Source of the DNA: a virus
Taxonomy: Duplodnaviria > Caudoviricetes
Direction: 5' to 3' (one strand)
IMG/VR virus record: IMGVR_UViG_3300031857_018978
Span: 1 to 59,675 of that record
Length of the DNA: 59,675 nt
The notes beneath the pieces are model-generated. The model had not been told where the DNA came from, did no database searches, and worked only from the letters and a program-made list of their open reading frames with translations. Shown here piece by piece: positions 5,256 to 53,570 of this stretch. Every line of letters begins with the position of its first letter. Positions within the stretch are counted from its first letter, which is position 1. The position numbers and the translations under genes were made by a program.

Positions 5256-8200
5256 ATGGAACCGAACTCTACAGATCCAGATGAAGGCACAAGCAGCAGT
5301 GTTGATACCAATGTGGTTTCTCAGGCAACTTTACGCAATTCAAATGAAATTGAATTATTGCCTTCTGAAAATGGCAGAGACAGGTATGTTATAGTAGAAA
5401 AAAGAACTGCTGAAACAATTTCTCCTTTAGTAAAAAAAGAGGTCGTATTAGATGGTATTTACGAAGTAATAGATAGAAACTTTTCATATCCATATGTAGC
5501 TCACGTTGGTATGAAATTTGATTCAAGAACATTTGGTAACATGCCAAATAGAGAGTTTGATGTGAAAATGAAGAAGGTAAAAGTGCCTTCTAATTATTTT
5601 CCTATTGGTGGAGATGGTTTAGACAGAAGATATGTCTTTGCCAATCCAGATTATCCAGCAAACCCAAATAGTCTTGACGTTATATTCATGGTTGATCAAA
5701 ACATGAATGCTCAAACTAAAGCTTTGATAAGAAGAAATTTGCAAGAAATGATCTTCAAATTAGTTGCTGGATATACTAATATAAGATTTTCTATATGGCA
5801 AACGGCTGCATCGGGAACTAATACGGTCGTAAATCAAGCAACCAATGAAACTATAGTTGGATTTACATATTATAATACGGCCTCGTTTGCAGAAATGGAA
5901 ACTCCAGATTCTGCTGGAGCAAATCAAACAAATTTATTTAAACAATTAGACACTGCTCTAAGCACAGCCCAATTAAGTCCAGCAACAAATCCTTCCGAAA
6001 CTAATATTGCCAATTTCTTTTTAAGAAAAAGTCAATTCAGTATAACTGATGAAGTAGGCAAGCTGTCAGAAGAAACCGTTCTTCAAAATCTTTGGAAAAA
6101 TACAGTAAGAAAAGTCGTTTATTTTTCTGGATCAACTCCAGAAACGATGAGTTCCGAAACTTATCAAATTCTCTTGAACAGGGCAAGAGAAGCTGGAATT
6201 CAATTGTATTATTTAAATACAGACCCTGATCGTTCTGGGACAAGAACTCTCAGAGAACTCGCAGAAGACACTGGTGGTGCAAAATTTAATTTACTTTACG
6301 ATTCTGATTCAAAACTACAACAGTTTTGCAATACAAACTTTTACGACAGTAATAAAATTTATTACGGAGATTGGGACGGTACTTTTAAAATTGCTTGGAC
6401 AGATAATCCCGCATGGATTTTGTATGATATAATTACAGACTTTAATTATGGTTTGGGCAATTATATTGATTCCTCTTCTGTTGATAAATGGACTTTGTAT
6501 GATATTGGTAGATACTGTGACGCTGTAGATGATGATGGCAGATTTAGAGGCGTGCCTGATGGTAAAGGAGGTCTTGAGCCAAGATATACATGTAATATTA
6601 TTTTCTATAATAAAGATGAAGCCTATAATGTATTAAAAGATATCGCAGCAATATTTAAAGGAATTATCTATTGGAATACAGAAGGCTTTTCTTTCTTCGC
6701 TGACAAGAAAAAAGAGCCATTGGTTTATTTTGCAAATACTAACGTTAAAGATGGTTTATTTAGCTATTCTGAAACCGCAAAGAATAAAAGATATACTAGT
6801 GTAGAGGTAACTTATAATGACAAATTTGATAATTATAAAACTAAAGTCGAATTTGTCGAAGACGTTGACGGAATTTTAAATTATGGTTTGAATCCTTATA
6901 AAATAAATGCGGCTGGATGCACTTCACGATCAGAAGCTAGAAGAATAGGAAGATATGCATTAACAAGCTCTATATACGAGACAGATACAGTTACCTTCAC
7001 TGCTGGATTAGAAGGCGCGTATTTACAACCTGGCGATGTATTTGGTATCAGCGATGAAATAAGAAACGTTGGCAGATCATTTGGTAGAATATTAGAAGTC
7101 AATGAAACAGCTAAAACAATTAAAATTGATGGTGAGTTCAACACTGGTTTAGACTCTGGAGTTTACATCCATGTGCCATCTGGTAATTTTTCTCTCTCCG
7201 ATTTAAATTCTTTAACTGGAAGTGACGGTGGATTTACCGGAACTCTTGAACAAATTAGAGCCAGAAGACAAAAACAAACTAGAAAGTTTAATATTCATAC
7301 GGTCACAGACGACACATATGGGGCCACTTTAACTTTAACTGGAGATTTCTTATTAAAATCAGGTATATTTGATGTTTATGCGCTTGAAAATAGAACTACA
7401 GGAGCTTCTTCAACGTACACGGGTATAACAACATTAACTGGTGTAGTTTATAACTTTCCTCCGCATACCGTTGTAAATGGAAATCCAAGGTGGGATACTT
7501 TGACTTTCTCTGGCATTTCTGGAGTGCTTTCTAATCTTGAAATAGATATTGATTTTTCTGGAGACGCTGGGACTGGATTATTAATATCTGCCTCAACCCC
7601 AAGTTGGGAAGGAATTATAACTGGTTTTAATAATATTAATTCAGACAGTGGAGATTTTGCTTGGACTGTCGCATCTGAAGGAAGATTAGAGTCTTATAAC
7701 TCAGCTGTTATTTATAGATACAATAGTGGAGGCGCTTATGAGGCGTCTAACTTATTAGGCAATATTAATAGCATATGGTCTAACCCTGTTTATACTAACG
7801 CAAGTACTGGAGATGTTGTTATTGCTGTGTGGCCAAGTGGAACACTAGATTCTACAACTCCAAATGCAATATGGTCAACCGGATACGCAGCAACAGAAGT
7901 ATTCAAATTGGGATTAGATACAAATACTAGCAAAGATAATTGCTTATATTGTGTCGCGCTAATTAAAGAAGGTTATCGTTTACTTGAAGCTGGTAGCAAA
8001 AGAGGTTTAGATTATCCTGGTATAAAATTTAATTATAGAGATTTGTTGGCTTATTCTAAGTTACGTCCATATTATACTTTTGTTCAAGCTGATTTCGGAA
8101 GCAGAGCAGAATCTATTTATGAAGATTGGAAATCTGGCAGAGATTATTCTGTTGGAAATATTGTAAAACATTATTCCGATACATATATCTGCACAAGATC

Positions 8201-41997: not shown

Positions 41998-42560
41998 TGC
42001 AGTTGAGCTATTGAATTATTGCCTTGCTTTTCTATTTTATAATTATTTTTTGTTAACAGTTGGACAAGTTTATTATGATTGATGTTGCTGCTATGAACAC
42101 CATCAGAATGAACCCATTCGTACTCTATATATTTTGGCTTATATTTTTCGTAGTTCAATTTTAAAAGAGCTTCTACATCATAGCCTTCAATATCAATGTA
42201 TAATCGATCAACATTTCCTTGCATAAACTCGAAAATGTTATTTAAATTTAAAGTAGGTAAAAATAAAAAATCACATTTGCTGTGTCCATGTGTTTTGACA
42301 TGATTTTCAAAAATAGATGCATGGGCCGAGGTTTGCCCATCTTTTGGGAAAATTAATTTTACGATGCTATTGTCATTGTAAATGGCGCAATTAACAGCGA
42401 TAAGTTTACTTTCTAAAAATGCGTATTTTGTTTTCGCAATTTCCACGCATTTGGGCAAAGCGTCAATAACTAAAAATTTAGATATGGATTCTTTATTTTT
42501 ATCAATGAAGTTGAAAACTTCATCTTCGCAATTATTGCACCCAATTTGAACAATGTTCAT
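41994..42560 (-). CDS. FkbM-family methyltransferase
   Basis: IVQIGCN, VNCAI, LYIDIEGYD, PKYIEYE. Confidence 0.8.
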   Translation of the reverse strand: MNIVQIGCNNCEDEVFNFIDKNKESISKFLVIDALPKCVEIAKTKYAFLESKLIAVNCAIYNDNSIVKLIFPKDGQTSAHASIFENHVKTHGHSKCDFLFLPTLNLNNIFEFMQGNVDRLYIDIEGYDVEALLKLNYEKYKPKYIEYEWVHSDGVHSSNINHNKLVQLLTKNNYKIEKQGNNSIAQLQ

Positions 42561-43579
42561 TACGAATTCAAATTAACTATTTCGATATTACATAAATCAA
42601 ACAAGCTGCCGCCAGCATAAGAAGCGGCGCTTTGTAAATCTTGTTCGATTTCTTTAAGTTTTTCAGCATAGGTCATATCGTTACCGCGAAGCATAACCTC
42701 AAATCCTTCAACATTCTTGCTGTGACCTTTCTGCTTTGCTGAAGCAGAGCCATAATAAAGCTTTTGTCCATAATCATCTCTATCGGCTGGCGAATCATCA
42801 CATGCCGCAAAAAGAGATCCAGCCATAACCATAACTTGAGGCAAGCTTCTTTTAACGTCAAGAATAACGCCATCCTTATTTGTTGGCATTTTTGAACCAG
42901 CCTGATAGGCTAGAGCAATTGCTTTCGCAATGTCTCCGTTCGTTTTAACACCGCCATCAATAATGATAGGAAACCTATCCTTATTCCAGTCTTTGTAAAT
43001 ATGCCAAGCTGTTAATGGCATCGGAAGTCCGAATCCTGTTTTGCCATAAGTTGAACAAGCGCCACCTTGAGCAATTCCAACCTTAACGCAATGAGCGCCC
43101 CATTCCATAAGATCGTAAGCTCCTTCTGAGGAGCAAACGTTGCCAGCAATAATTTTAACTTGAGGAAGATACTCTTGAATAATCCAAATCATATTCTTCA
43201 TTAGTTGGCTATCTCCATGAGCAATATCAACAGTAATAAAGTCTACCTTTAGTTTTTCTTTTGCAATTTCTTTGATAAAGTCTTTGTCGCTTTGTTGAAC
43301 GCCAACACTAATGCTGATAATTGGCCAAAGTTGTTCATTCATTCTTCTTAACAGTTTTATATTGCCATCAGGCTCTTTGAAGAACCTATGCATGATATAA
43401 AAGTAATTCTCGAAAGAAAGATACTTGGCAATGTCTTCGTTGATAACCGAAGACATATTCGATGGAACTACTGGCAGCTTAAACTGCTTATTTAAAAAAT
43501 GACAAGAGACATCAATCTCTGATCGACTTTTGCCGCCAAAAAAACGTGGAACTAAAGTTAAATCTGAATAGCTACGCAT
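42560..43579 (-). CDS. guaC: GMP reductase
   Basis: PVVPSNM, DIAHG, IAGNV, KVGIAQGGACST, IIIDGG, YYGSAS, NVEG, DLQSA.SYAG. Confidence 0.9.
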   Translation of the reverse strand: MRSYSDLTLVPRFFGGKSRSEIDVSCHFLNKQFKLPVVPSNMSSVINEDIAKYLSFENYFYIMHRFFKEPDGNIKLLRRMNEQLWPIISISVGVQQSDKDFIKEIAKEKLKVDFITVDIAHGDSQLMKNMIWIIQEYLPQVKIIAGNVCSSEGAYDLMEWGAHCVKVGIAQGGACSTYGKTGFGLPMPLTAWHIYKDWNKDRFPIIIDGGVKTNGDIAKAIALAYQAGSKMPTNKDGVILDVKRSLPQVMVMAGSLFAACDDSPADRDDYGQKLYYGSASAKQKGHSKNVEGFEVMLRGNDMTYAEKLKEIEQDLQSAASYAGGSLFDLCNIEIVNLNS

Positions 43580-43616: not shown

Positions 43617-44840
43617 TTATTCCGAACTTTCTGAAGAAAGATATTTGTGAACAGTAGTAATGTAATCGTCAGCAATTGTTAATTTAGCGGCAACCCAAGC
43701 TTCAGTAATTTCAGCAGAAGCCTCTCCTCCAGCATCAACCATAGCTTTGATTTCTTGAAGCTTTTTCATCATTGATGAGACGTTAGTCATTGTCATTTCG
43801 ACAGACTCTTTTTGATATTCCATCAGTTCTTCATTCTCATCTTCCATTTCTGGAGCTTCTTTAAGATCAGGATTTTGCATCATTAATTCTTCTTGACTGT
43901 GCATTTCATCCATCTCCATCATATAAGCGGCAAAAGAACCTTTTGTTACTTGAGTTACAGACTTGCCACCTTCCCACATTCTGCAAGACCAATAGCGAGC
44001 TTTCCATTTGGGACCAGGATTGCTGTCACATTGATGACGGGCGCGAAAATTTCTACGGCGATCTGGATCGTCGCGTTTAATTTCCATATTTGGGTCTCCA
44101 AACTTTACCATTACAACATTGCCTTTTGGATTTTTAACGTAAACTCCAAACTTCTTTTTGGAACCTGATGGAAGTCTAAATGGTTTATTGAGAGTTTTCT
44201 TTTCCGCTTCTGACATCTCGTTATACTCTTCTTCGTCTTCTGATTCGTAAGAATCATCCATTTCAGCAATACTGACGTTACATCTAACCAAGTCTGAGGC
44301 AGCGATAACTAATTCGTATTCATCAAAATCAAAAGATGCTGATGATTTATTTGTTACCGATTTGATACTGTCATCGCTGGCTTTTGCGATATCTTGATCT
44401 GCTGCTCTGTAAGCGTCTTTTACTTTACCGCCAGCCATCATTCGTAAAAATGTATTTACGCGAGCCATTGCCCACTGGCCACGGCTTTTACCTGGTCTGC
44501 TGGATGAAGAAAATGCACCAGCGCCTCTTCTGTATACTTTTTTAAGTTGAGAAAGGGTAACTTTTTTTGAGTGTTTTTTGTTATGCTCTTCTACTTTTTT
44601 CTTTAGAGCGTTAGTTACTTTTTCGCTGAAAGTGATTGCGGCTTTTACGACCTTTTTTTCGTCCTCTCTTTTGAGAGCTTTTTGAGCTTTCTCTTTGGCG
44701 TCTGGACTTGTACCAGCGGAACCTGGTGGATTTTTAGGAGATCCTTTTAGTCTGTCTTCTGGCTTTGCAGGAGTTTGTGCAGAGCTTTTAGGTCCTGGGC
44801 GTTTCTTTGCTAAAATCCTTTCGGAAAAATCAAGTTCCAT
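43617..44840 (-). CDS. Composite hypothetical protein (DUF5824-like module, KFG/YWSC module and acidic tail)
   Basis: LKKVYRRGAGAF..SRPG...QWAMARV; KKFGVYV..VKFGDP...FRARHQC...ARYWSC; EAWVAAKLT.A.DYI. Start MELDF follows GTGTAAA. Confidence 0.6.
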   Translation of the reverse strand: MELDFSERILAKKRPGPKSSAQTPAKPEDRLKGSPKNPPGSAGTSPDAKEKAQKALKREDEKKVVKAAITFSEKVTNALKKKVEEHNKKHSKKVTLSQLKKVYRRGAGAFSSSSRPGKSRGQWAMARVNTFLRMMAGGKVKDAYRAADQDIAKASDDSIKSVTNKSSASFDFDEYELVIAASDLVRCNVSIAEMDDSYESEDEEEYNEMSEAEKKTLNKPFRLPSGSKKKFGVYVKNPKGNVVMVKFGDPNMEIKRDDPDRRRNFRARHQCDSNPGPKWKARYWSCRMWEGGKSVTQVTKGSFAAYMMEMDEMHSQEELMMQNPDLKEAPEMEDENEELMEYQKESVEMTMTNVSSMMKKLQEIKAMVDAGGEASAEITEAWVAAKLTIADDYITTVHKYLSSESSE

Positions 44841-44845
44841 AATAT

Positions 44846-45484
44846 TTATTTTACACGTTTTCTTGTCTTTTTGGCCTTGGCCATTGGTATGAAAACAGCG
44901 ACGCACATCACAATAGAAAGTCCCATAAAAATAGAAACAAACTTTTCAAACTGCTTTAAAGACTTGACTGACTCTGATGTATAAACCGAAGAAATAACCA
45001 TTTCTTTTTCTAGTATTTCATTTATGGTATCTGTTGCTTTATCGACAACAGTATAAAGTTCTCCATTTTCTATAAGAATTTTGAGTTGTGAGGCGTCTTT
45101 TTCTTTACATATCTTTTCTATCTTATCTAAATACTTAAAAGTATCTTCGCATCTAATTTTCAATTTGTCCAATAGCAAACGCTCTTCTTGAGAGTTGATT
45201 TTATTTTCGTAATTTTTTAAATGTTTTTTTATTGTTTCTTTGGCTTCTTTTATGTTTTTGCAATACTCTTCGAATGTTATAAGTCCATGAGCAGCTTTAA
45301 CTTGCGAATCAACTATCATTATTGAGTGAGCATCAAATAATGGACTAAGCTCATATGTTACATTTTTGAAACATTGGTCTGTTTGATTAAAATTGAAAAT
45401 AGCTTTTTCGCAAGTTTTATATCCATAAATAGAAAATATTAATGCTATAAAACCAAGTAAACAAACTTTAATTTTTGTTGCCAT
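44846..45484 (-). CDS. Truncated chemoreceptor: TM, four-helix ligand-binding domain, TM, no signalling domain
   Basis: Two TMs flank D.H..MIVD..K..HG.IT.EE..I..A..I...Y...S.EE..L...LY..VD, a 4HB_MCP-like pattern. Confidence 0.6.
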   Translation of the reverse strand: MATKIKVCLLGFIALIFSIYGYKTCEKAIFNFNQTDQCFKNVTYELSPLFDAHSIMIVDSQVKAAHGLITFEEYCKNIKEAKETIKKHLKNYENKINSQEERLLLDKLKIRCEDTFKYLDKIEKICKEKDASQLKILIENGELYTVVDKATDTINEILEKEMVISSVYTSESVKSLKQFEKFVSIFMGLSIVMCVAVFIPMAKAKKTRKRVK

Positions 45485-45804
45485 TATCTTTTAATAAATT
45501 TAGCTGGATCTTTAGAAACGCCCTTTGCTAAATTAGTTAAAGCGTCTATAATTTCTGGACTTACAACTCCAACAACACCATATGTTATAGCTTTAGTTAT
45601 AGAGCTTATATCCATTTGTTCAACGATAAACCAAGCTATTGTTGATGTTATAGATGCGACAACAATCTTGCGTAAATAATCCATCCAATTTGCCTTTTTT
45701 AATGGGTTTGAAATTAATCTGGCTAACATGCCCGCCGCCCCGATTATCGATACCATCCATCCACTTTCTAAAAACAATTTGAATAAATCTTTATCGTCGG
45801 ACAT
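45484..45804 (-). CDS. Small 3-TM holin-like protein
   Basis: IIGAAGMLARL; IVVASITSTIAWF; YGVVGVVSPEII; basic C-terminus. Confidence 0.6.
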   Translation of the reverse strand: MSDDKDLFKLFLESGWMVSIIGAAGMLARLISNPLKKANWMDYLRKIVVASITSTIAWFIVEQMDISSITKAITYGVVGVVSPEIIDALTNLAKGVSKDPAKFIKR

Positions 45805-45850
45805 GTTATTTTTTACACAAAAAAATTCAATAAGATTATTTAATATCTGT

Positions 45851-45952
45851 TTTCCCCCCTTCCCCTTATCCCTTTCTTTCCCCCTTCTTTCCCCCCCTCA
45901 GACTCCCCCCCTATTATCCCCCAAACTATCCCTTGATCCCCATCCCCCCTTT
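45851..45952. repeat. Mirror-symmetric polypyrimidine/polypurine tract (triplex/G4-prone)
   Basis: C-runs 6,4,3,5,7 / TCAGACT / 7,5,3,4,6; spacers read outward 6,7,4,2 versus 6,7,5,2. Confidence 0.9.
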
Positions 45953-45956
45953 CTTT

Positions 45957-45981
45957 AATAAAAATACTTCGTATTTTTATT
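45957..45981. repeat. 11-bp inverted repeat with a C-GAA-G triloop on the minus strand
   Basis: AATAAAAATAC-TTC-GTATTTTTATT. Confidence 0.85.
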
Positions 45982-46009
45982 GCGCTTTGCGCGATTTGTT
46001 GAAAATCGA

Positions 46010-46038
46010 TTGACAACTTTTAGAATCTGTGCGAAATT
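46010..46038 (+). promoter_or_regulatory. Possible sigma70 promoter (leaderless) for the dut-sigma-ssb operon
   Basis: TTGACA-17-GAAATT (weak -10, extended TG), 6 nt before ATG. Confidence 0.45.
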
Positions 46039-46044
46039 CAAGTC

Positions 46045-46512
46045 ATGGAACAAACATCGTTCAAAGTTTTAAAAAATGGATTTGAAAACAATCTGATCGC
46101 CCCAGCCAAGGGCGACGCTGGTTGGGATTTGATTGCTTCTTCCGATCCAGAAATTGTTTTCTCTGACGAGAAAAAGAAAAATATTTTATATATTGAATAT
46201 GACACTGGTGTTGTGCTTCAGCCACCAAATGGATTTTATACATTACTGTTCCCTAGATCTAGCATCAGTAAATATGAATTAGCTTTAGCAAATTCTGTTG
46301 GAGTTATCGACTCTGGTTATAGAAATACAATTAAATTAAGGTTTAGATTTTTAGGCAAAAAGCTTTCTAAAAACTCCCTGATTTATCAAAAAGGAGATAA
46401 AATTGGGCAATTGATATTCGCTCCAATGTTTATGTTTTCCGCTCATCAAACAGAATCGCTTGAAGAATCCGAAAGAGGTTTAGCTGGATTTGGAGAAAGG
46501 ACAGGTTCATGA
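46045..46512 (+). CDS. dut: Trimeric dUTPase
   Basis: GDAGWDL, PRSSIS, GVIDSGYR, GDKIGQL, RGLAGFG. Confidence 0.93.
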   Translation: MEQTSFKVLKNGFENNLIAPAKGDAGWDLIASSDPEIVFSDEKKKNILYIEYDTGVVLQPPNGFYTLLFPRSSISKYELALANSVGVIDSGYRNTIKLRFRFLGKKLSKNSLIYQKGDKIGQLIFAPMFMFSAHQTESLEESERGLAGFGERTGS

Positions 46513-47090
46513 GATTAATGCCAGAGCAGATGGACGATCTCGACCTGATTCAAGAAGTCAGGTCAAACGGAAACAGTTCTTGTTTCAAAGAAATCGTTAA
46601 TCGTCACTCTGGCATTTATCTTCAAATGATTCATAGCTACGCTCCAAAAGAGACTTCTATTGATAATTTTTATGATTTATTAAATAGTAAAGAATCGCAT
46701 ATTTACGATGCGATTCAATCTTTTGATCAAAATAGAAAAATAAAATTCTCAACTTATCTTGGCAATTGCACTCGTTGGCTTTGTTTAAATTCCTCTAACA
46801 AAAGAAGGCACCAACAAATTGAAGAAAATTTTGATTGCATATTTGAAACCGAAGAAGAAAAAGAATCTTCAGATCAAAAAACTATAGAAGAAATCTTGTC
46901 TAAACTTGACGAATTCGAAGACCAAAGAATTAAAAAAATATTTCGCATGAGATATTTTAGCGGAGAAAAAAAGCCATTAGCTTGGAGAAAAATTGCAAAA
47001 GAGCTTGACTTATCGATTCAAGGCTGTATAAATATCCACAATTCAGCCTTCAAAAAGCTGAAGAAAACCTATCAAAAAAAATATGATTAA
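46509..47090 (+). CDS. Phage sigma-70-family sigma factor
   Basis: DLDLIQ...IVNRH, AIQSFD...KFSTYL (region 2), and IFRMRY...WRKIAKELDLS HTH (region 4). Confidence 0.8.
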   Translation: MRLMPEQMDDLDLIQEVRSNGNSSCFKEIVNRHSGIYLQMIHSYAPKETSIDNFYDLLNSKESHIYDAIQSFDQNRKIKFSTYLGNCTRWLCLNSSNKRRHQQIEENFDCIFETEEEKESSDQKTIEEILSKLDEFEDQRIKKIFRMRYFSGEKKPLAWRKIAKELDLSIQGCINIHNSAFKKLKKTYQKKYD

Positions 47091-47517
47091 TGTAGTAGCA
47101 CTCGCAGGAAATGCCGTGGGAGATCCCACTGTTCGTTCGACAAACTCCGGTAAGAAGGTCGCAACCTTTCGTCTTGCCGTAAACAATCCACTTTCTGAAA
47201 AGGAAGTACTTTTCATCGATGTCGATACTTGGGAAAAACAAGCCGAATTCGTTGAAAAGTACGTGAAGAAGGGTAGTCTTATTTCAGTCGTTGGCAGATT
47301 GAAGCAAGATACTTGGGAGAAGGATGGTCAAAAGCGCTCTTCTATTTCCGTAATTACCGAGCGTCTTAATTTCGTAAATTCTGGAAAGAAGAAGGACGGA
47401 GAAGCGGCTTCTGACGAAGACGCTCCTGCGCCACGCACCGCAAAGCCCGCCGCAAAAACTTACGCAAAGGCTGCTCCAAAACCAGCAGTTGACTCAGACG
47501 ACGACATTCCAATTTAA
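47083..47517 (+). CDS. ssb: Single-stranded DNA-binding protein
   Basis: NVVALAGN, FRLAVN, KKGSLISVVGRL, acidic DDDIPI tail. Confidence 0.93.
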   Translation: MINVVALAGNAVGDPTVRSTNSGKKVATFRLAVNNPLSEKEVLFIDVDTWEKQAEFVEKYVKKGSLISVVGRLKQDTWEKDGQKRSSISVITERLNFVNSGKKKDGEAASDEDAPAPRTAKPAAKTYAKAAPKPAVDSDDDIPI

Positions 47518-48669: not shown

Positions 48670-49083
48670 ATGAGTACACTATATATTAATTCTCAAATAA
48701 CTGATGCAGTTACACAAACATTTGGTTCACTTTACACGTATCCTAACTGTAATGTGACCACTAAAACATCATGTGGGCTATTCCCCAGATCAAATAGCTT
48801 TACTGAATTTGAAGATCAGACTGAAAGCGGTTATAAAATTATTGCTTTGATTCCTGGTTGTCCAAAGGAAAATGTTTCTGTAAAATATATTTCTGATGAA
48901 AACCTTGTGAAGCTTGAGGCCAAGTCAGAAGTTGAAAACTTCAAGCGAAACTACGAAGCTTCATATTATGTCCCCAGCAAGTTTAATTTGGATGAAATGC
49001 AATGCTCTTTAAAAAATGGCATTTTGACCATCTCTATTCCGCACGGCAAAAATTCAAAACCTAAAGAAGTTAAAATATCATAA
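48670..49083 (+). CDS. Small heat-shock protein (Hsp20)
   Basis: IPGCPKENVSV...SLKNGILTISIP alpha-crystallin motif. Confidence 0.85.
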   Translation: MSTLYINSQITDAVTQTFGSLYTYPNCNVTTKTSCGLFPRSNSFTEFEDQTESGYKIIALIPGCPKENVSVKYISDENLVKLEAKSEVENFKRNYEASYYVPSKFNLDEMQCSLKNGILTISIPHGKNSKPKEVKIS

Positions 49084-49127: not shown

Positions 49128-49511
49128 ATGCCACTTTACACTTATCAGAATCCACAGACGGGAGAAACAATTGACCTAATCCAAGGAATGAATGAGGAGC
49201 ATTCATATACCGACAAAAATGGGCTTGAATGGAAAAGGGTATTCCAAGTACCTAATGCTGCTGTAGACTCGCAAATAGACGCTAATAACCCACTGGCATT
49301 CGTGGACGCAACAAGGAACAAGAAGGGTACATACGGCGACCTTTTAGACAAAAGCGCTGAACTTAGCGAAAAGAGGGCCAAAACATACGGAGGCGAAGAC
49401 CCTGTTAAGCAAAAGTTTTTAAATGATTATTCAAAAAAGACGAAGGGTAAAAAACACCCATCGTTATTGAAAAAGACTTACGAGTCAAAAAATGTTAAAG
49501 TAGATTACTAA
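49128..49511 (+). CDS. FmdB-like (Cys-less zinc-ribbon) phage protein
   Basis: MPLYTY...TGE...M.E N-terminus. Confidence 0.55.
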   Translation: MPLYTYQNPQTGETIDLIQGMNEEHSYTDKNGLEWKRVFQVPNAAVDSQIDANNPLAFVDATRNKKGTYGDLLDKSAELSEKRAKTYGGEDPVKQKFLNDYSKKTKGKKHPSLLKKTYESKNVKVDY

Positions 49512-51618
49512 TCTTCTCCATTACCATTTCTGGAGTAATGGATCTTGTGCATTCAAAATTCTTATTTTCTGGACACCACAGCCAGTTATTTTTATCAAAC
49601 GTATGCTTTTCATTGTTCCAGCATCCATTGCATACTTTTTCATTTATAATTCTATAGGGTGTTTCAAATTCTGCAAATGGCTTGCTAAACCCGCTAATTA
49701 AAACTACAGGTTTATTCAAAGCCCAAGCTAGCCAAGACAAGCCAGATCCCAGACCTATAAAAAATTTTGAGTTATGGATTTGTGACATTCTTAACTCAAG
49801 AGGGAAATCTCCAGTTTTATCAACTGCCCCTTTGGGAATTGGATTCATTATCGCATTACCAAATAACGAATATCTATCAATACACCAAGCCTCATACCCC
49901 TTTTTATTCAAAAGCTGAATCAGCTTTTCCCACCCATTCGGATTATTCCAATATTTGCATTGCGCCGTGCTTTGAGTTGCTATGCAGACATATTTTTTAT
50001 TTGTCTGTCCTACGTTTGGAAACGATAATTTTGGTTTATCCTCGCGATGCTCTAGGTCTAAAATATAGCTTGGAACATGATTTAGTTTAGTTAATCTAGG
50101 ATTAACAACAGATTTATCAATCCAGTTGTCCATAAAATAACCTACGTCATAAACAGCGTAATAGCCATTATTTGAATTTTGTTCCGAAATAAAATTTATA
50201 TTTTTATAATTTTGCTTTAAAGATCTGAGCAAATCTTGATTGTATAAAGTGCAATCTATTTGACATTCATGCTTTTTTTGGAACCTGTCTATAACAGGAA
50301 CATAGGCCAACAAATCACCCAAGCTTCCTGTTTCTACATTTATTTTTACCTTTTTGCCTTTTAAATTTAATTTTTCAGAAAAAATCAACATTCTGCCATT
50401 AGGTGTTTTTTCATAAACATCCACTTTCCAGTTTACAAAATAACTTCGTTTTGGCCTTGACCACATATTATTATTTATTGTTGTCGCGTATATTAATTCG
50501 CCAGAAGAGTCATCTATAAATTCAATATCATATGTTTTCTTTCGAGAGCCAATAACTTCAGCTTTAACTCCTTGGCGAAAATCTACAATAACTTTATTAT
50601 CTTCGGTATTTATTTTTGTGTCCCGATAAGACTGAATAAATCTATTTGCAAAAATCTGCTCTCTGTATTCACTGTACAAATTGACCAAATCATTTACTCT
50701 ATTTGAATAAGAATTTTTTTGAGCGTTCGCCAAAGCTTTTTCTTTAAAACTTGAGTAATTATTTACTACTGTTTTAATTCCCTCAATTGCTGATTCCAAA
50801 GTTCTTTCTGTGACGCACATCCCGTCGTATTGTTTTTCTTCAAAAGTCCCAACAACTGGCAGTCCACAAGACATAGCTTCAAGTAAAGTTAAATTTGGAT
50901 GGCCCGCTTCTAATTCCGAAAAATGCAGAAAAATATCGTGCTTACCGTAAAGCTCTATGAGTTGAGTTTCGCTCAAATCAAAAAACTTAGTCAGTTTTGA
51001 ATAATTATTTATTTCGCTTGGCAAGGTAGAAAAAAAGTTTTCATTATTTTGGGGGCCAGCTACAGTTATGGGCAAGTCAAGTTTCATCGCTGCTTCAATA
51101 GCAATTTTGAAACCCTTTCTGTCTGCATTTGGATTACCAGCATACCCGTTATTTGCGACGCATAGCAAACTAACACTATCTTTTAAAAGATTAAAATTTA
51201 ATTTGTCTTTTGTCGGAGTAAAAACATCCGTATTTACAGCGTGAGAAAAATATCTTAATTTTTTACTTCCAAAATATTCGACGAAAAACTTGCATGGAGA
51301 TGTCGATATTACGCTATTTTCTATGGCTTTTAAATTTTCTTTAAAGCAGTGAGAATCTTTTCCATACAAGAAAGCATGGTGATCGTGAATGGTAAAAATA
51401 TATGGAATTCCTCTTTCAAAGCACATGTTTGCTAGATTAGCGACATGAACATGAACTACTTGACTATCATCATAATTGACATCATTTAGATACTTTATTT
51501 CGCTTTTGATGCCGTTTTTTTCTAGTTGAAGATGATAATCCCAAATGATTTTTTCTACCGCCCCCCATCCATTTGGAGGTATAGCCAACAAACCAGGAGT
51601 TACATTAATAACTTTCAT
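49495..51618 (-). CDS. GT4 fused to a TibC/Aah-type (BAHT) protein O-heptosyltransferase domain
   Basis: IPPNGWGAVE (GT4); SLGDLLAYVP, YVCIATQSTAQCKYWNNPNGW, FFIGLGSGLSWLAW, ISGFS and VCNGCW..WCP..FEC. Confidence 0.85.
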   Translation of the reverse strand: MKVINVTPGLLAIPPNGWGAVEKIIWDYHLQLEKNGIKSEIKYLNDVNYDDSQVVHVHVANLANMCFERGIPYIFTIHDHHAFLYGKDSHCFKENLKAIENSVISTSPCKFFVEYFGSKKLRYFSHAVNTDVFTPTKDKLNFNLLKDSVSLLCVANNGYAGNPNADRKGFKIAIEAAMKLDLPITVAGPQNNENFFSTLPSEINNYSKLTKFFDLSETQLIELYGKHDIFLHFSELEAGHPNLTLLEAMSCGLPVVGTFEEKQYDGMCVTERTLESAIEGIKTVVNNYSSFKEKALANAQKNSYSNRVNDLVNLYSEYREQIFANRFIQSYRDTKINTEDNKVIVDFRQGVKAEVIGSRKKTYDIEFIDDSSGELIYATTINNNMWSRPKRSYFVNWKVDVYEKTPNGRMLIFSEKLNLKGKKVKINVETGSLGDLLAYVPVIDRFQKKHECQIDCTLYNQDLLRSLKQNYKNINFISEQNSNNGYYAVYDVGYFMDNWIDKSVVNPRLTKLNHVPSYILDLEHREDKPKLSFPNVGQTNKKYVCIATQSTAQCKYWNNPNGWEKLIQLLNKKGYEAWCIDRYSLFGNAIMNPIPKGAVDKTGDFPLELRMSQIHNSKFFIGLGSGLSWLAWALNKPVVLISGFSKPFAEFETPYRIINEKVCNGCWNNEKHTFDKNNWLWCPENKNFECTRSITPEMVMEKISNLL

Positions 51619-53570
51619 ATTTTTTTGACCAAGCCAAGTTGATTTATTTTAGACAAATACTGCTCATCGACAACTACTTTTTTAGTATAAATTTCTTTTT
51701 CTTCGCTTACCTTTAATTCAACATCTGTTGGTACAATCGGCCAATCAATAATTTTTATAAATGTCTGTTTACCGTTTATTTGAACGCTTGAACTTTGCGC
51801 GCCAATTATTAATTCTGCAAATCTATTATCAATAGAATTGGAAGTATGAAAAACTATAGCTAATTTATTTTCGTCTTGAACAGGAAGAACAGCGAAATAC
51901 TCTACTTGAGAATTGGAATCTATTTGGCACTGTTTTGTGTCTTCAGCGTATTCGTTTAAAGAAGACATATAAATATTATCGGCTTCTTTTAGGTTATGAA
52001 AGTAAATATTTTCCAGACCATTAGATTCTGACTTTACTCGCTCCATCCAGCTGTTGTATTCAGATTCGTTTTTAATCAATGGAAATTTATCGGCAAACAA
52101 ATCTGTTCGCACTGCATGAAAAACTGTTTTAAATGTTTTGCCCTCTTGACACTGCTCTTCAACAAAATAACCGTTACTTCGCTCTAGTTTTGCGAGGACT
52201 TTAGATAAGAATTTTTTATCATTTAAGATAAAATCAAAGTTCATGCATATAGCTTTTTTATAGCCAAGCTTTTTAGCAAAATTAATCGCATTATAATAAT
52301 TGGTATATACGGCTGGTCCGTGATATATGTCGTTATCAGTTTTGTCTAAAAATAATTGAATTTGATAATTGCTATTATTTTCACTTGCATAGCCAGTAAA
52401 TCTTTTATAAAAAGTATGTCGGGTTAAAATATTGTTTTTATCTACTATTGAATAATCTGAAGTGTTTTGCAACGCCTCTGGAACTGAGCAGTGCGATACC
52501 AAAATAACAGGAGCATTACTAATTTTGTTTAAACTCTCAATGCATTTTTGAGTTGTTTGCGTTATACAATTATTTGTTGGATAACTTGATACAATAAAAA
52601 CATAATCATTAAGCTTTGCAAGATTTAGTTTATTTAAGATTTTATCTTCGTTTTCTTTTAAGTCATTAAAATTTAAATATTCTATATTATGAAATTTATT
52701 ATACATGCCCAGATATACCGGCAAATTATAAATTAAGCTTGGAACATTGAAGGAAATGGCTTCTCTTATAACAAGAGGGCTTGTTTCCTTATTATTATCT
52801 GATCCTCTTGAGGTAAATAGAAAAAGATCTGCTGCTTGGTAAAAATTTTCAACATCTTTTCTTTCATTCCACCAAGTACAATTACTTGGCCACTCTTTCA
52901 TCAAAGGCTCCCAATAAAATCTAAAGTTATCAGCTTGATTTCCAATAAAGTGAAATTGGATCGGGTAATTTAAAAGACTTTTTGCATACTCTATAATTTC
53001 TGCTTGATTTTTTCTTGGGGTAAAAAGACCAACGTTAACAACGTGTTTTTTAGATGGATCTAGTCCTAATACTTTTAAAGCCTCTTCTCTTGACTTTCTG
53101 ATTTTTATTGAAATCGGATATTCGTGAACCTCCGAAGATATTTTTAAAGATTCTACATTTCTTTTTTGAAATTCACTTACAAATGTAAATTTATCTGGGA
53201 AAAACCTTTTTGAAGATGGATCAAAGCTGCTATCGTGAGAAGTTTCAACTATAGTATATTTTCTTTCTTTAGAATATATTTTTTCAGCCAAACCATTATC
53301 CATAAAATATTCTGGCATCTCTTCAAGATGCAAAACATCTGGATTTATTTGATTTATGATTTTTAATAAATCATTTTTATCTTCTCTTAAAGTAAAAAAT
53401 TTATCTTTTAGCAAATCGATGATTTGATTTTTTTGTACTACAAACCCACCGTGATCAGCATATTCAACGCAATATATTTCACATTCTTTTTTTAATATCT
53501 GTATTTTCTTTAAAAGAAATTGTGGCAATCCACCTGTTGAAAGGTGAGGGGCTATGTAAAGAATTTTCAT
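51615..53570 (-). CDS. GT4 glycosyltransferase with a second GT-like C-terminal domain
   Basis: PHLSTGGLPQ, VGLFTPRKNQ, ADLFLFTS..ETSPLVIREA. Confidence 0.8.
   Translation of the reverse strand: MKILYIAPHLSTGGLPQFLLKKIQILKKECEIYCVEYADHGGFVVQKNQIIDLLKDKFFTLREDKNDLLKIINQINPDVLHLEEMPEYFMDNGLAEKIYSKERKYTIVETSHDSSFDPSSKRFFPDKFTFVSEFQKRNVESLKISSEVHEYPISIKIRKSREEALKVLGLDPSKKHVVNVGLFTPRKNQAEIIEYAKSLLNYPIQFHFIGNQADNFRFYWEPLMKEWPSNCTWWNERKDVENFYQAADLFLFTSRGSDNNKETSPLVIREAISFNVPSLIYNLPVYLGMYNKFHNIEYLNFNDLKENEDKILNKLNLAKLNDYVFIVSSYPTNNCITQTTQKCIESLNKISNAPVILVSHCSVPEALQNTSDYSIVDKNNILTRHTFYKRFTGYASENNSNYQIQLFLDKTDNDIYHGPAVYTNYYNAINFAKKLGYKKAICMNFDFILNDKKFLSKVLAKLERSNGYFVEEQCQEGKTFKTVFHAVRTDLFADKFPLIKNESEYNSWMERVKSESNGLENIYFHNLKEADNIYMSSLNEYAEDTKQCQIDSNSQVEYFAVLPVQDENKLAIVFHTSNSIDNRFAELIIGAQSSSVQINGKQTFIKIIDWPIVPTDVELKVSEEKEIYTKKVVVDEQYLSKINQLGLVKKI

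Follow-up and report, generated by a model that had tools for sequence, protein, structure and literature searches.

A mirror-symmetric tract of C runs conserved in a clade of uncultured phages: a candidate purine-motif triplex and possible replication origin element

We found that a 96-base tract of ten C runs in an uncultured phage genome is real, conserved, and selected for strand-specific mirror symmetry. In the reading that we tentatively favor, the tract is an element acting at the DNA level, most likely a supercoil-driven intramolecular triplex of the purine motif (H-r DNA) that forms part of a phage replication origin. An origin role is the most likely one given the company that the core of the tract keeps in other phages and the A+T-rich hairpins that adjoin it here.

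Layout, symmetry and conservation of the tract

The tract lies in an uncultured phage fragment, an IMG/VR virus record of linear class with a CheckV completeness of 41%. The window referred to below is this whole stretch of 59,675 bp. Its G+C content was 35.8%. The genes of the window encode tail proteins, a ribonucleotide reductase, a family-A-like DNA polymerase, a primase, a DnaB-like helicase and a UvsX-like recombinase, as well as sugar-modifying enzymes and several glycosyltransferases. The tract is present as one copy per record and occupies part of a 240-bp gap between divergent genes. The features of the region were the following:

45484 to 45804, minus strand: holin-like gene (106 aa), the leftward neighbor; replaced by a 228-aa ORF in other relatives
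45854 to 45897, plus strand: left arm with C runs of 6,4,3,5,7 and T-only spacers save one A; predicted acceptor duplex, purine.pyrimidine throughout
45898 to 45904, plus strand, with a G at 45901: center word TCAGACT (AGTCTGA on the G strand), invariant among relatives and common to unrelated phages and prophages; predicted loop
45905 to 45949, plus strand: right arm with C runs of 7,5,3,4,6 and mixed A/T spacers; predicted to donate its G-rich complement as the third strand
45957 to 45981, no strand assigned: A+T-rich perfect hairpin or cruciform with 11-bp arms and a 3-nt loop (TTC on plus, GAA on minus); compensatory changes in class B
45982 to 45992, no strand assigned: small G+C hairpin (4-bp arms, 3-nt loop); in one relative (L102) a pair differs on both sides
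45999 to 46026, plus strand: sigma-70-like promoter match (10/12) serving the dUTPase, sigma-like regulator and SSB block; both hexamer positions kept in class B
46045 to 46512, plus strand: dUTPase gene, the rightward neighbor
46509 to 47090, plus strand: sigma-like regulator, after the dUTPase
47083 to 47517, plus strand: SSB, after the sigma-like regulator and 1.1 kb from the tract

The rightward block continues beyond the SSB with a glycosyltransferase and an Hsp20. Among relatives the left cassette is exchangeable, consisting either of the holin-like gene with a membrane protein or of the 228-aa ORF; the tract and its right side are constant, and all relatives share the divergent arrangement.

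The C runs, with lengths of 6,4,3,5,7 | 7,5,3,4,6 on the two sides of TCAGACT, start at 45854, 45862, 45870, 45880 and 45891 on the left and at 45905, 45918, 45930, 45938 and 45944 on the right. They are separated by spacers of 2,4,7,6 and 6,7,5,2 nt, respectively. Each 7-nt spacer holds a lone C, and these two Cs align in the mirror. The two arms differ in composition. The 44 bases of the left arm include one A and no G, leaving 16 T and 1 A as its non-C bases, against 10 T, 8 A and 1 G in the right arm. The original prediction, made on the letters of the window, had described the run lengths, the mirror about TCAGACT at 45901, the spacers and the aligned lone C, all of which proved exact to the base. 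The composition of the arms bore out its further statements that the left arm is almost pure pyrimidine and that the right-arm spacers substitute A or T. It had also placed the tract correctly in a long intergenic gap at a divergent strand switch of an AT-rich genome.

C runs of at least five bases are scarce in the window: there are nine, six of them in the tract, including both runs of seven. The mirror score of C positions, calculated without gaps, was 20 at the center 45901, and the next-best site in the window scored 2. The mirror alignment of the two arms comprised 26 C/C columns, one gap and two other columns. When C and non-C positions of the right-arm blocks were aligned to the reversed left arm in every order, one of 2880 orders reached the observed score, and this was the native one. 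Mononucleotide shuffles never reached it under the same alignment (0/5000, z 6.8). A shuffle test had been proposed as a check on the original prediction; together with the block-order statistics it excludes a chance low-complexity stretch. No Watson-Crick fold was obtained for either strand (minimum free energies of 0 and -0.2 kcal/mol, ViennaRNA), so the symmetry is not a disguised palindrome. The window tract has the mirror-repeat symmetry of H-DNA. An identical tract was recovered in independent assemblies, whole in two of them (L002, L168) and up to the contig limits in two others (L010, L107). Two raw-read runs yielded 0 reads of the stretch.

We then compared the region with its relatives. 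A blastn search with positions 44800-47100 found no DNA match among cultured phages. In IMG/VR there were 21 contigs encoding a dUTPase 73-99% identical to that of the window, and all 21 carried the tract at the same place: 12 had it whole, and nine started inside it or just after it. No such tract was present within 4 kb in relatives whose dUTPase was at most 48% identical (n = 17). In IMG/VR and metagenome contigs, 14 distinct flank variants had the TCAGACT center and the right-hand spacer. One of them (L170) was short, with two runs per arm in another context. The other 13 belonged to the clade and fell into four architectures, all mirror-symmetric, with the following left-arm runs, read from the outside in:

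Class A: 6,4,3,5,7, with subtypes 5,4,3,6,8 and 7,4,3,6,8 and others
Class B: 3,5,3,3,5,7
Class C: 5,3,4,5,7
Class D: 5,4,3,(2),5,7

The classes differ from one another in a coordinated manner on the two arms. Both inner spacers measure either 6 or 5 nt (6|6 or 5|5), and both second spacers either 7 or 2 nt (7|7 or 2|2). Any reordering of the outer blocks is matched across the center, and the pair of innermost runs reads 5,7 or 6,8 on each arm alike. The native order of the right arm was the sole match in five of the six variants tested, out of 1440-2880 orders. For class B, 3000 random draws gave 2446 distinct orders, and the score of the native one was not attained by any of them. The runs keep their strand, with C on the same one in every class. 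So does the asymmetry of the arms: the acceptor arm is essentially C and T in every class, and the donor arm has A or T facing T. Across classes, T accounted for 14-17 of the 16-17 non-C bases of the left arm, whereas T and A were about equally frequent in the right arm. Covariation of the mirror in relatives, which had been named as a check on the prediction, was thus found as four architectures plus run-length subtypes, each of them symmetric. Because recombination and gene conversion homogenize direct or inverted repeats but not mirror repeats, these coordinated changes point to selection.

Two other roles were rejected on the same data. The changes in run length are not multiples of three and would break any reading frame, which argues against a coding role. 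Phase variation by slippage leaves the coordinated two-arm changes unexplained.

Predicted triplex structure

According to the available text of a review (PMC11667243; Hisey, Masnovo and Mirkin), a homopurine.homopyrimidine mirror repeat can fold, in an Mg2+-dependent manner, into the intramolecular purine-motif triplex known as H-r (*H) DNA, for which d(G)n.d(C)n was the first case described. It is built from CG*G and TA*A triads and tolerates TA*T well, as the original prediction had held in allowing T to replace A. The same text states that H-r DNA needs Mg2+ or Zn2+, that it has been seen in E. coli plasmids upon transcription induction, and that the 3' isoform (H-r3) is the prevalent one.

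The window tract resembles this structure in several respects. It is a mirror repeat dominated by G/C runs, one of its arms is purine.pyrimidine, and it is predicted to use CG*G and TA*A triads along with the tolerated TA*T. Its expected trigger would be negative supercoiling or transcription (PMC11667243, available text). The homopurine.homopyrimidine acceptor arm was evident in the share of C or T, 43/44 in the window and 45/45 in class D, where the non-C bases were 17 T and 0 A. The triad pattern of the third strand (G over G-C; A or T over A-T) was found in class A, subtype A4 and classes B, C and D, with 42/45, 43/45, 41/45, 42/43 and 45/45 columns obeying the rule, respectively. A triplex of the pyrimidine motif (H-y) was rejected. 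With 8 A among the 19 non-C bases of the right arm, the triad rules imply about eight disallowed triads whichever arm serves as donor. The purine-motif triplex is the only structure we found that fits all three conserved properties together, namely C positions in mirror, one arm of pure pyrimidine and the other with A and T mixed; its formation is predicted from the sequence.

Some features count against the triplex. There are two to three disallowed columns and a 1-nt gap in classes A and B. The asymmetry of the arms means that the third strand must be the 5' half of the purine strand, which goes against the H-r3 isoform described as prevalent in the available text of PMC11667243. The window tract also differs from the H-r DNA of that text in being interrupted and asymmetric, so that its mixed A/T arm would force the less usual isomer, in having an invariant loop word, and in being conserved by compensatory change in a phage lineage. 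The original prediction of a non-B structure of about 45 triads under selection is partly supported, by the symmetry, the covariation and the 42/45 allowed columns.

The core motif in other genomes and the candidate origin

We defined the core of the tract as the TCAGACT center with six or more C on each side (C6-8 TCAGACT C6-8). It occurred in 21 IMG/VR stretches, in at least 119 metagenome stretches, and in 38 stretches from a collection of 185,579 species genomes. By our own estimate, the probability of the 19-mer is about 4.5e-11 per position at 65% GC, meaning that some high-GC matches may be chance; the argument therefore rests on the viral and low-GC cases and on context. Searches of Rfam with the tract and with nine other core-bearing loci gave no match at E values up to 1.

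Five viral elements outside the clade of the window carried the core, namely G001, L186, L187, L190 and L191. The first is a complete 81-kb phage (G001) that has only a polymerase, 27% identical, in common with the window. In this phage, an A+T hairpin comes after C7 TCAGACT C7, and its loop is TTC as in the window. The core lies in a 270-bp gap right after the primase gene, within a helicase, primase and clamp-loader module of co-directional genes.

Other loci placed the core inside genes for replication initiators or beside iterons or a primase gene. L186, at 66% GC, has a multi-run version (7,7,6|6,7,7,6) inside an O-like initiator (phrog_9474, 270 and 1701), near residue 208; the N-terminal half of this initiator is 46.6% identical to protein O of Citrobacter phage Chris1. 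Its core array is abutted by 12-bp iterons, detected as nine overlapping 60-nt copies in 12-nt steps at 7716-7871. In L187, the core falls at about residue 176 of an O-like/DnaD_N initiator, with iterons 170 bp away and a DnaC-like loader gene following. In L190 (with L189), the gene of a Lin1244_N initiator-like protein carries it at about residue 184, past iterons with an 11-bp period; a tblastn search of cultured phages with this initiator found no match. In metagenome and genome contigs, the core also lies inside a DnaD-like initiator with iterons beside it (L099) and inside an O-like initiator where it abuts iterons with a 33-bp period at 687-849 (L134; four 64-nt copies in 33-nt steps). 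Two more loci (L100, L213), assigned by gene order, have it inside an ORF that precedes a DnaC-like loader, with iterons adjacent. In L191 it abuts four repeats with an 18-bp period and a polypurine tract, and in L121 it adjoins a primase/helicase-like ORF.

In total, the core was found inside initiator or initiator-like genes near iterons in seven cases, abutting iterons in one (L191), and beside primase genes in two (G001, L121). Along the initiator gene the order was N-terminal domain, iterons, motif in 6/6 such genes, with L100 having iterons on both sides. Iteron sequences and initiator families differed in all contexts, so the reader of the motif is not the initiator. The C strand had no fixed polarity relative to the initiator gene or iterons, as three loci were G-coding and four C-coding, and we rejected such a polarity as a feature of the motif.

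Twin C runs as such are not an origin signature. Among the matches listed for C6-T-N5-T-C6 in viral contigs, the runs enclosed many center words, and a twin C-run motif with the center TTGTGTT stood directly upstream of terminase small-subunit genes in 7/7 loci tested. Poly-C contig ends dominated among the matches listed for C7-N7-C7 in IMG/VR.

A further arrangement was seen on the flanks of the core. Among the matches listed, 51 of 119 non-family flank groups had a G run of at least five bases no more than 30 nt away on the 5' side, compared with five groups on the 3' side. Judging from its sequence, this G - C - C arrangement could fold as an intrastrand triplex. Many of the G - C - C cases listed have the stop of an FGE-sulfatase-domain gene on one side and a reverse transcriptase gene on the other, which is the layout of a diversity-generating retroelement.

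A known bacterial element invites comparison here. TM-ECO is described in the available text of its report (PMC4666352; Holder et al.) as an intrastrand purine-motif triplex repeat consisting of a C stem, a loop, a G stem, a 3-nt loop and a second G stem. It is conserved and abundant in prokaryotic DNA, and that text reports it as not associated with phages or plasmids. Like TM-ECO, the motif studied here is short, G/C-rich, of three segments and capable of G.G-C, the closest resemblance being to the variant with G6, a loop and C6 TCAGACT C6. Unlike TM-ECO as that text presents it, it has different segments and loops, and the window tract, with no G run on the C strand, would need duplex H-DNA.

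The position of the core in five of the loci (L186, L187, L190, L099, L134), inside the initiator gene and downstream of iterons, is that of the unwinding tract in lambdoid origins; L100 and L213 agree when judged by gene order. The window departs from the lambdoid arrangement. It has no iterons in 45700-46150, where a repeat search found the C-run repeats only, and its tract is made of G+C runs rather than plain A+T-rich DNA. No initiator gene, O-like or otherwise, was recognizable beside the tract, the neighbors being the holin-like and dUTPase genes, with the primase and helicase 13-15 kb away. A GC-skew check proposed with the original prediction gave no origin signal: skew in the window tracks gene direction, and there was likewise no signal in G001, where some 10 kb separate the core from the skew minimum.

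The segment next to the tract is suited to unwinding, with A or T at 30/32 bases in 45950-45981. In 11 distinct relatives, 95% of hairpin cells were paired, versus 32-60% with slid partners. Three hairpin pairs were altered on both sides, with few independent events behind these changes. Small hairpins with stable 3-nt loops, extruded by supercoiling, are found at the early promoters of phage N4, and mini-hairpins with GAA loops occur at the origins of single-stranded phages. The conserved 11-bp hairpin beside the tract resembles both in its C-GAA-G turn on the G strand; unlike N4, the window had no N4-type virion RNA polymerase that we could see.

Origins primed at G runs and C runs are known from the persistent hybrid of ColE1 RNA II and from mitochondrial CSB II, both of which need transcription through the runs to give a G-rich RNA. 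The tract is similar in having G/C runs of six or more, as those systems do where they prime DNA synthesis. It differs in that contigs from RNA libraries do not cover it and in that the orientation of its strand varies with respect to the initiator gene. Metatranscriptome contigs from two runs covered 45487-45788 and 46056-46497 and none covered 45790-46055, at a depth so low that the hole proves nothing. The hole weakly suggests that the tract is not transcribed. We found no promoter reading into the tract from the right. Both observations weakly disfavor readings in which it acts as RNA, whether as a G-rich leader at the 5' end of a transcript, as a small C-rich RNA or as a loading site for Rho.

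The origin element that we favor would work as follows. Divergent transcription driven by the flanking promoters, together with general negative supercoiling, would load the 240-bp spacer. The sequence rules would then allow the right arm's G-rich strand to turn at the AGTCTGA loop and join the left-arm duplex as a third strand, with G.G-C, A.A-T and T.A-T triads in 42/45 columns here and in 45/45 in class D. Such a fold would leave about 45 nt of the C-rich right arm single-stranded. By analogy, this single strand, lying beside A+T-rich hairpins prone to cruciform formation, may serve as the entry for the DnaB-like helicase, the primase and SSB.

A bolder extension, which we consider possible but doubtful, is that C runs, TCAGACT and C runs make up a widespread origin module independent of the initiator. 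A G.G-C fold triggered by supercoiling would hold the origin open or present the loop to the priming machinery, and the clade of the window would have expanded the module to its 45-triad version. The core alone, with 6-8 triads, is short for H-DNA, and the invariance of the center word suggests recognition by a protein or enzyme over a passive loop.

Alternative readings and significance

The same non-B element could instead serve only the two divergent promoters, as a supercoil sink or as an insulator by which they are coupled or kept apart, and have no role in replication. The layout fits this: the tract stands between the start of the leftward gene (45804) and the rightward sigma-70-like promoter (45999-46026), the divergence is kept in all relatives, and contigs from RNA libraries end before the tract on either side. 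The appearance of H-r DNA in E. coli plasmids upon transcription induction (PMC11667243, available text) also agrees with it. We nevertheless regard it as unlikely, for the unrelated G001 has the core and hairpin between co-directional genes, and elsewhere the core is located within initiator genes near iterons rather than between promoters.

A G-quadruplex on the minus strand, an i-motif on the plus strand, or both could be the selected structure, with the mirror being secondary. Cellular K+ favors G-quadruplexes on the G strand of the tract. This strand has ten G runs of 3-7 bases, the loops between them are 2-7 nt long, and its G4Hunter score averages 2.05, a result that upheld its naming as a G-quadruplex candidate in the original prediction; 90 windows of 25 nt scored at least 1.5 in the whole 59.7 kb, and all were in the tract. 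Breaks in assembly are also as expected of structure-prone G/C homopolymers: among 24 related IMG/VR contigs, 11 end inside the tract. However, neither a quadruplex nor an i-motif needs the mirrored order of runs, the mirrored lone C or the contrast between T-only and A/T arms, all of which are conserved by compensation, and the two-run core is unable to form an intramolecular quadruplex. A quadruplex or i-motif as the selected structure is in our view quite improbable.

We give little credence to a model in which G+C and A+T blocks form a phased array, either wrapping around a dyad-symmetric protein complex or bound by one; for such a complex, a mirror of weak and strong pairs would amount to a palindrome. 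Run starts in the tract are 6-14 bp apart with a mean of about 10 bp, and the invariance of the center word in many unrelated contexts suggests sequence-specific recognition. Origins, moreover, often contain bent or wrapped DNA. A strand-blind code of DNA shape, though, requires neither that all ten runs have C on one strand in every class nor that A be excluded from the left arm. No candidate binding protein was common to the contexts, the initiator families of which differ.

That the tract is a packaging site (cos or pac), an option listed in the original prediction, or a physical genome end is very improbable. The contigs ending inside the tract and the TTGTGTT-centered twin runs upstream of terminase genes speak for it. 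Against it, the terminus check found the contig ends anywhere between about 5 nt to the left of the center and 45 nt to its right, a spread of about 50 nt rather than one position, and 13 of the 24 contigs read through. No terminase gene was found in the window, near the tract or elsewhere, and the TCAGACT core sits in initiator genes beside iterons. The breaks look like drop-out in sequencing or assembly at structure-prone homopolymers, not a fixed molecule end. Of the other functions that had been listed, a replication origin gained support from the sites of the core elsewhere, and a switch between divergent promoters did not hold as a general role given the co-directional arrangement in G001.

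An assembly artefact or a chance low-complexity stretch is already refuted: contigs in IMG/VR commonly end in artefactual poly-C or poly-G runs, but here unique conserved flanks stand in long contigs from many assemblies, the variation is ordered, chance fails the tests given above, and assembly errors would be expected to give inverted rather than mirror repeats.

H-DNA has been known in vitro for decades. Its roles in microbes are described as poorly characterized in the available texts of PMC13463272 and PMC11667243. A full-text literature search, with subscription journals and supplementary files outside its scope, found no paper containing the 15-base core and no precedent for phage origins with H-DNA, homopurine or quadruplex elements.

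The phage lineage described here supplies the covariation test that is usually missing, in that four layouts keep both the mirror and the purine-motif pairing rule. If the bolder extension given above is true, this would be the first natural compensatory evolution documenting H-DNA as a functional genetic element. Selected, functional triplex DNA becomes directly testable with a defined 96-bp element and natural compensatory mutants. The occurrence of the core with the iteron arrays of unrelated initiators points to an undescribed, host-independent component of origins, which would also account for the breaks in the assembly of these phages at the tract, and the prediction of origins in uncultured phage genomes could improve as a result.

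The tract as a boundary in the window phage

We compared the cassette directly left of the mirror-symmetric C-run tract between the window (45484-45804) and contig stretches L019, L021, L022, L032 and L102. This cassette swaps between a holin-like gene with a membrane protein and a 228-aa ORF, and its type varies independently of the architecture class of the tract, i.e., its mirrored run-length layout. Judged from these comparisons, the tract marks a mosaic boundary. Eleven of 24 related IMG/VR contigs (L017, L018, L020, L023, L027-L031, L007 and L010) ended inside the tract, at scattered positions, two of them finishing in junk bases; it is a common breakpoint in assemblies of this phage clade.

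The window also carries sugar epimerase and aminotransferase genes, as well as the following:

42560-43579, IMPDH/GMP-reductase-like gene
48670-49083, Hsp20 gene
49495-53570, two multi-domain glycosyltransferases, both very large (707 and 651 aa)

Together, these genes form a sizeable auxiliary or surface-modification set.

The core and a related motif in other gene contexts

The core of the tract (C6-8 TCAGACT C6-8) and a separate twin C-run motif with a different centre word were located in several other settings, exemplified by:

L118:2912-2970, G6, short loop, C6 TCAGACT C6
L380:2209-2227, C6-8 TTGTGTT C6-8

The complete 81-kb phage genome G001, whose kinship to the window phage is limited to a 27%-identical polymerase, has C7 TCAGACT C7 and an A+T hairpin whose loop is TTC immediately downstream of the primase gene (L182:1827-1890). 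Its right C run is also able to pair with a G5 run on the far side of the hairpin.

The G6-preceded element (L118, L127, L129, L138, L160, L165 and similar loci) occupies a short gap 3' of FGE-sulfatase-domain genes, which are fusions with NACHT or kinase domains. A reverse transcriptase gene follows it directly in L118 and L165, and the one adjoining it in L160 is of the group II intron type. The order of sulfatase gene, element and reverse transcriptase is the arrangement found around the target hairpin of a diversity-generating retroelement.

In L072, L154, L214 and six gut-metagenome contigs like them, the core makes up the loop of a hairpin flanked by a Trp-repressor gene and an amidase/beta-lactamase-domain gene, with a complementary G run upstream. 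These contigs belong to a gut bacterium, and the title of one record names Blautia intestinihominis. The short contigs L081, L110 and L220 each contain two core copies with identical flanks, spaced 3.0-4.9 kb apart, and may be small circular replicons assembled past one unit length. On the related contig L056, no ORF had a Pfam match.

The TTGTGTT motif, a perfect mirror, lay directly upstream of terminase small-subunit genes at all seven loci tested (L380, L400, L406, L293, L390, L412 and L377), with a conserved word containing TTGACA ~25 nt off. Possible identities of the motif are a cos/pac site or a leader element.

The core beside iterons and initiator genes

In eight contexts, the core adjoined an iteron array:

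L186:7657-7871
L187:5158-5469
L190:9600-9978
L099:1331-1455
L134:687-868
L100:2103-2457
L213:6244-6338
L191:2493-2606

The core of L191 is placed in an intergenic gap, whereas in the other seven it lies within a replication initiator gene (L186, L187, L190, L099, L134) or an ORF 5' of a DnaC-like loader gene (L100, L213). The arrays themselves are wholly unlike one another in sequence. From its sequence contexts, the core looks like an initiator-independent origin module common to differing initiators.
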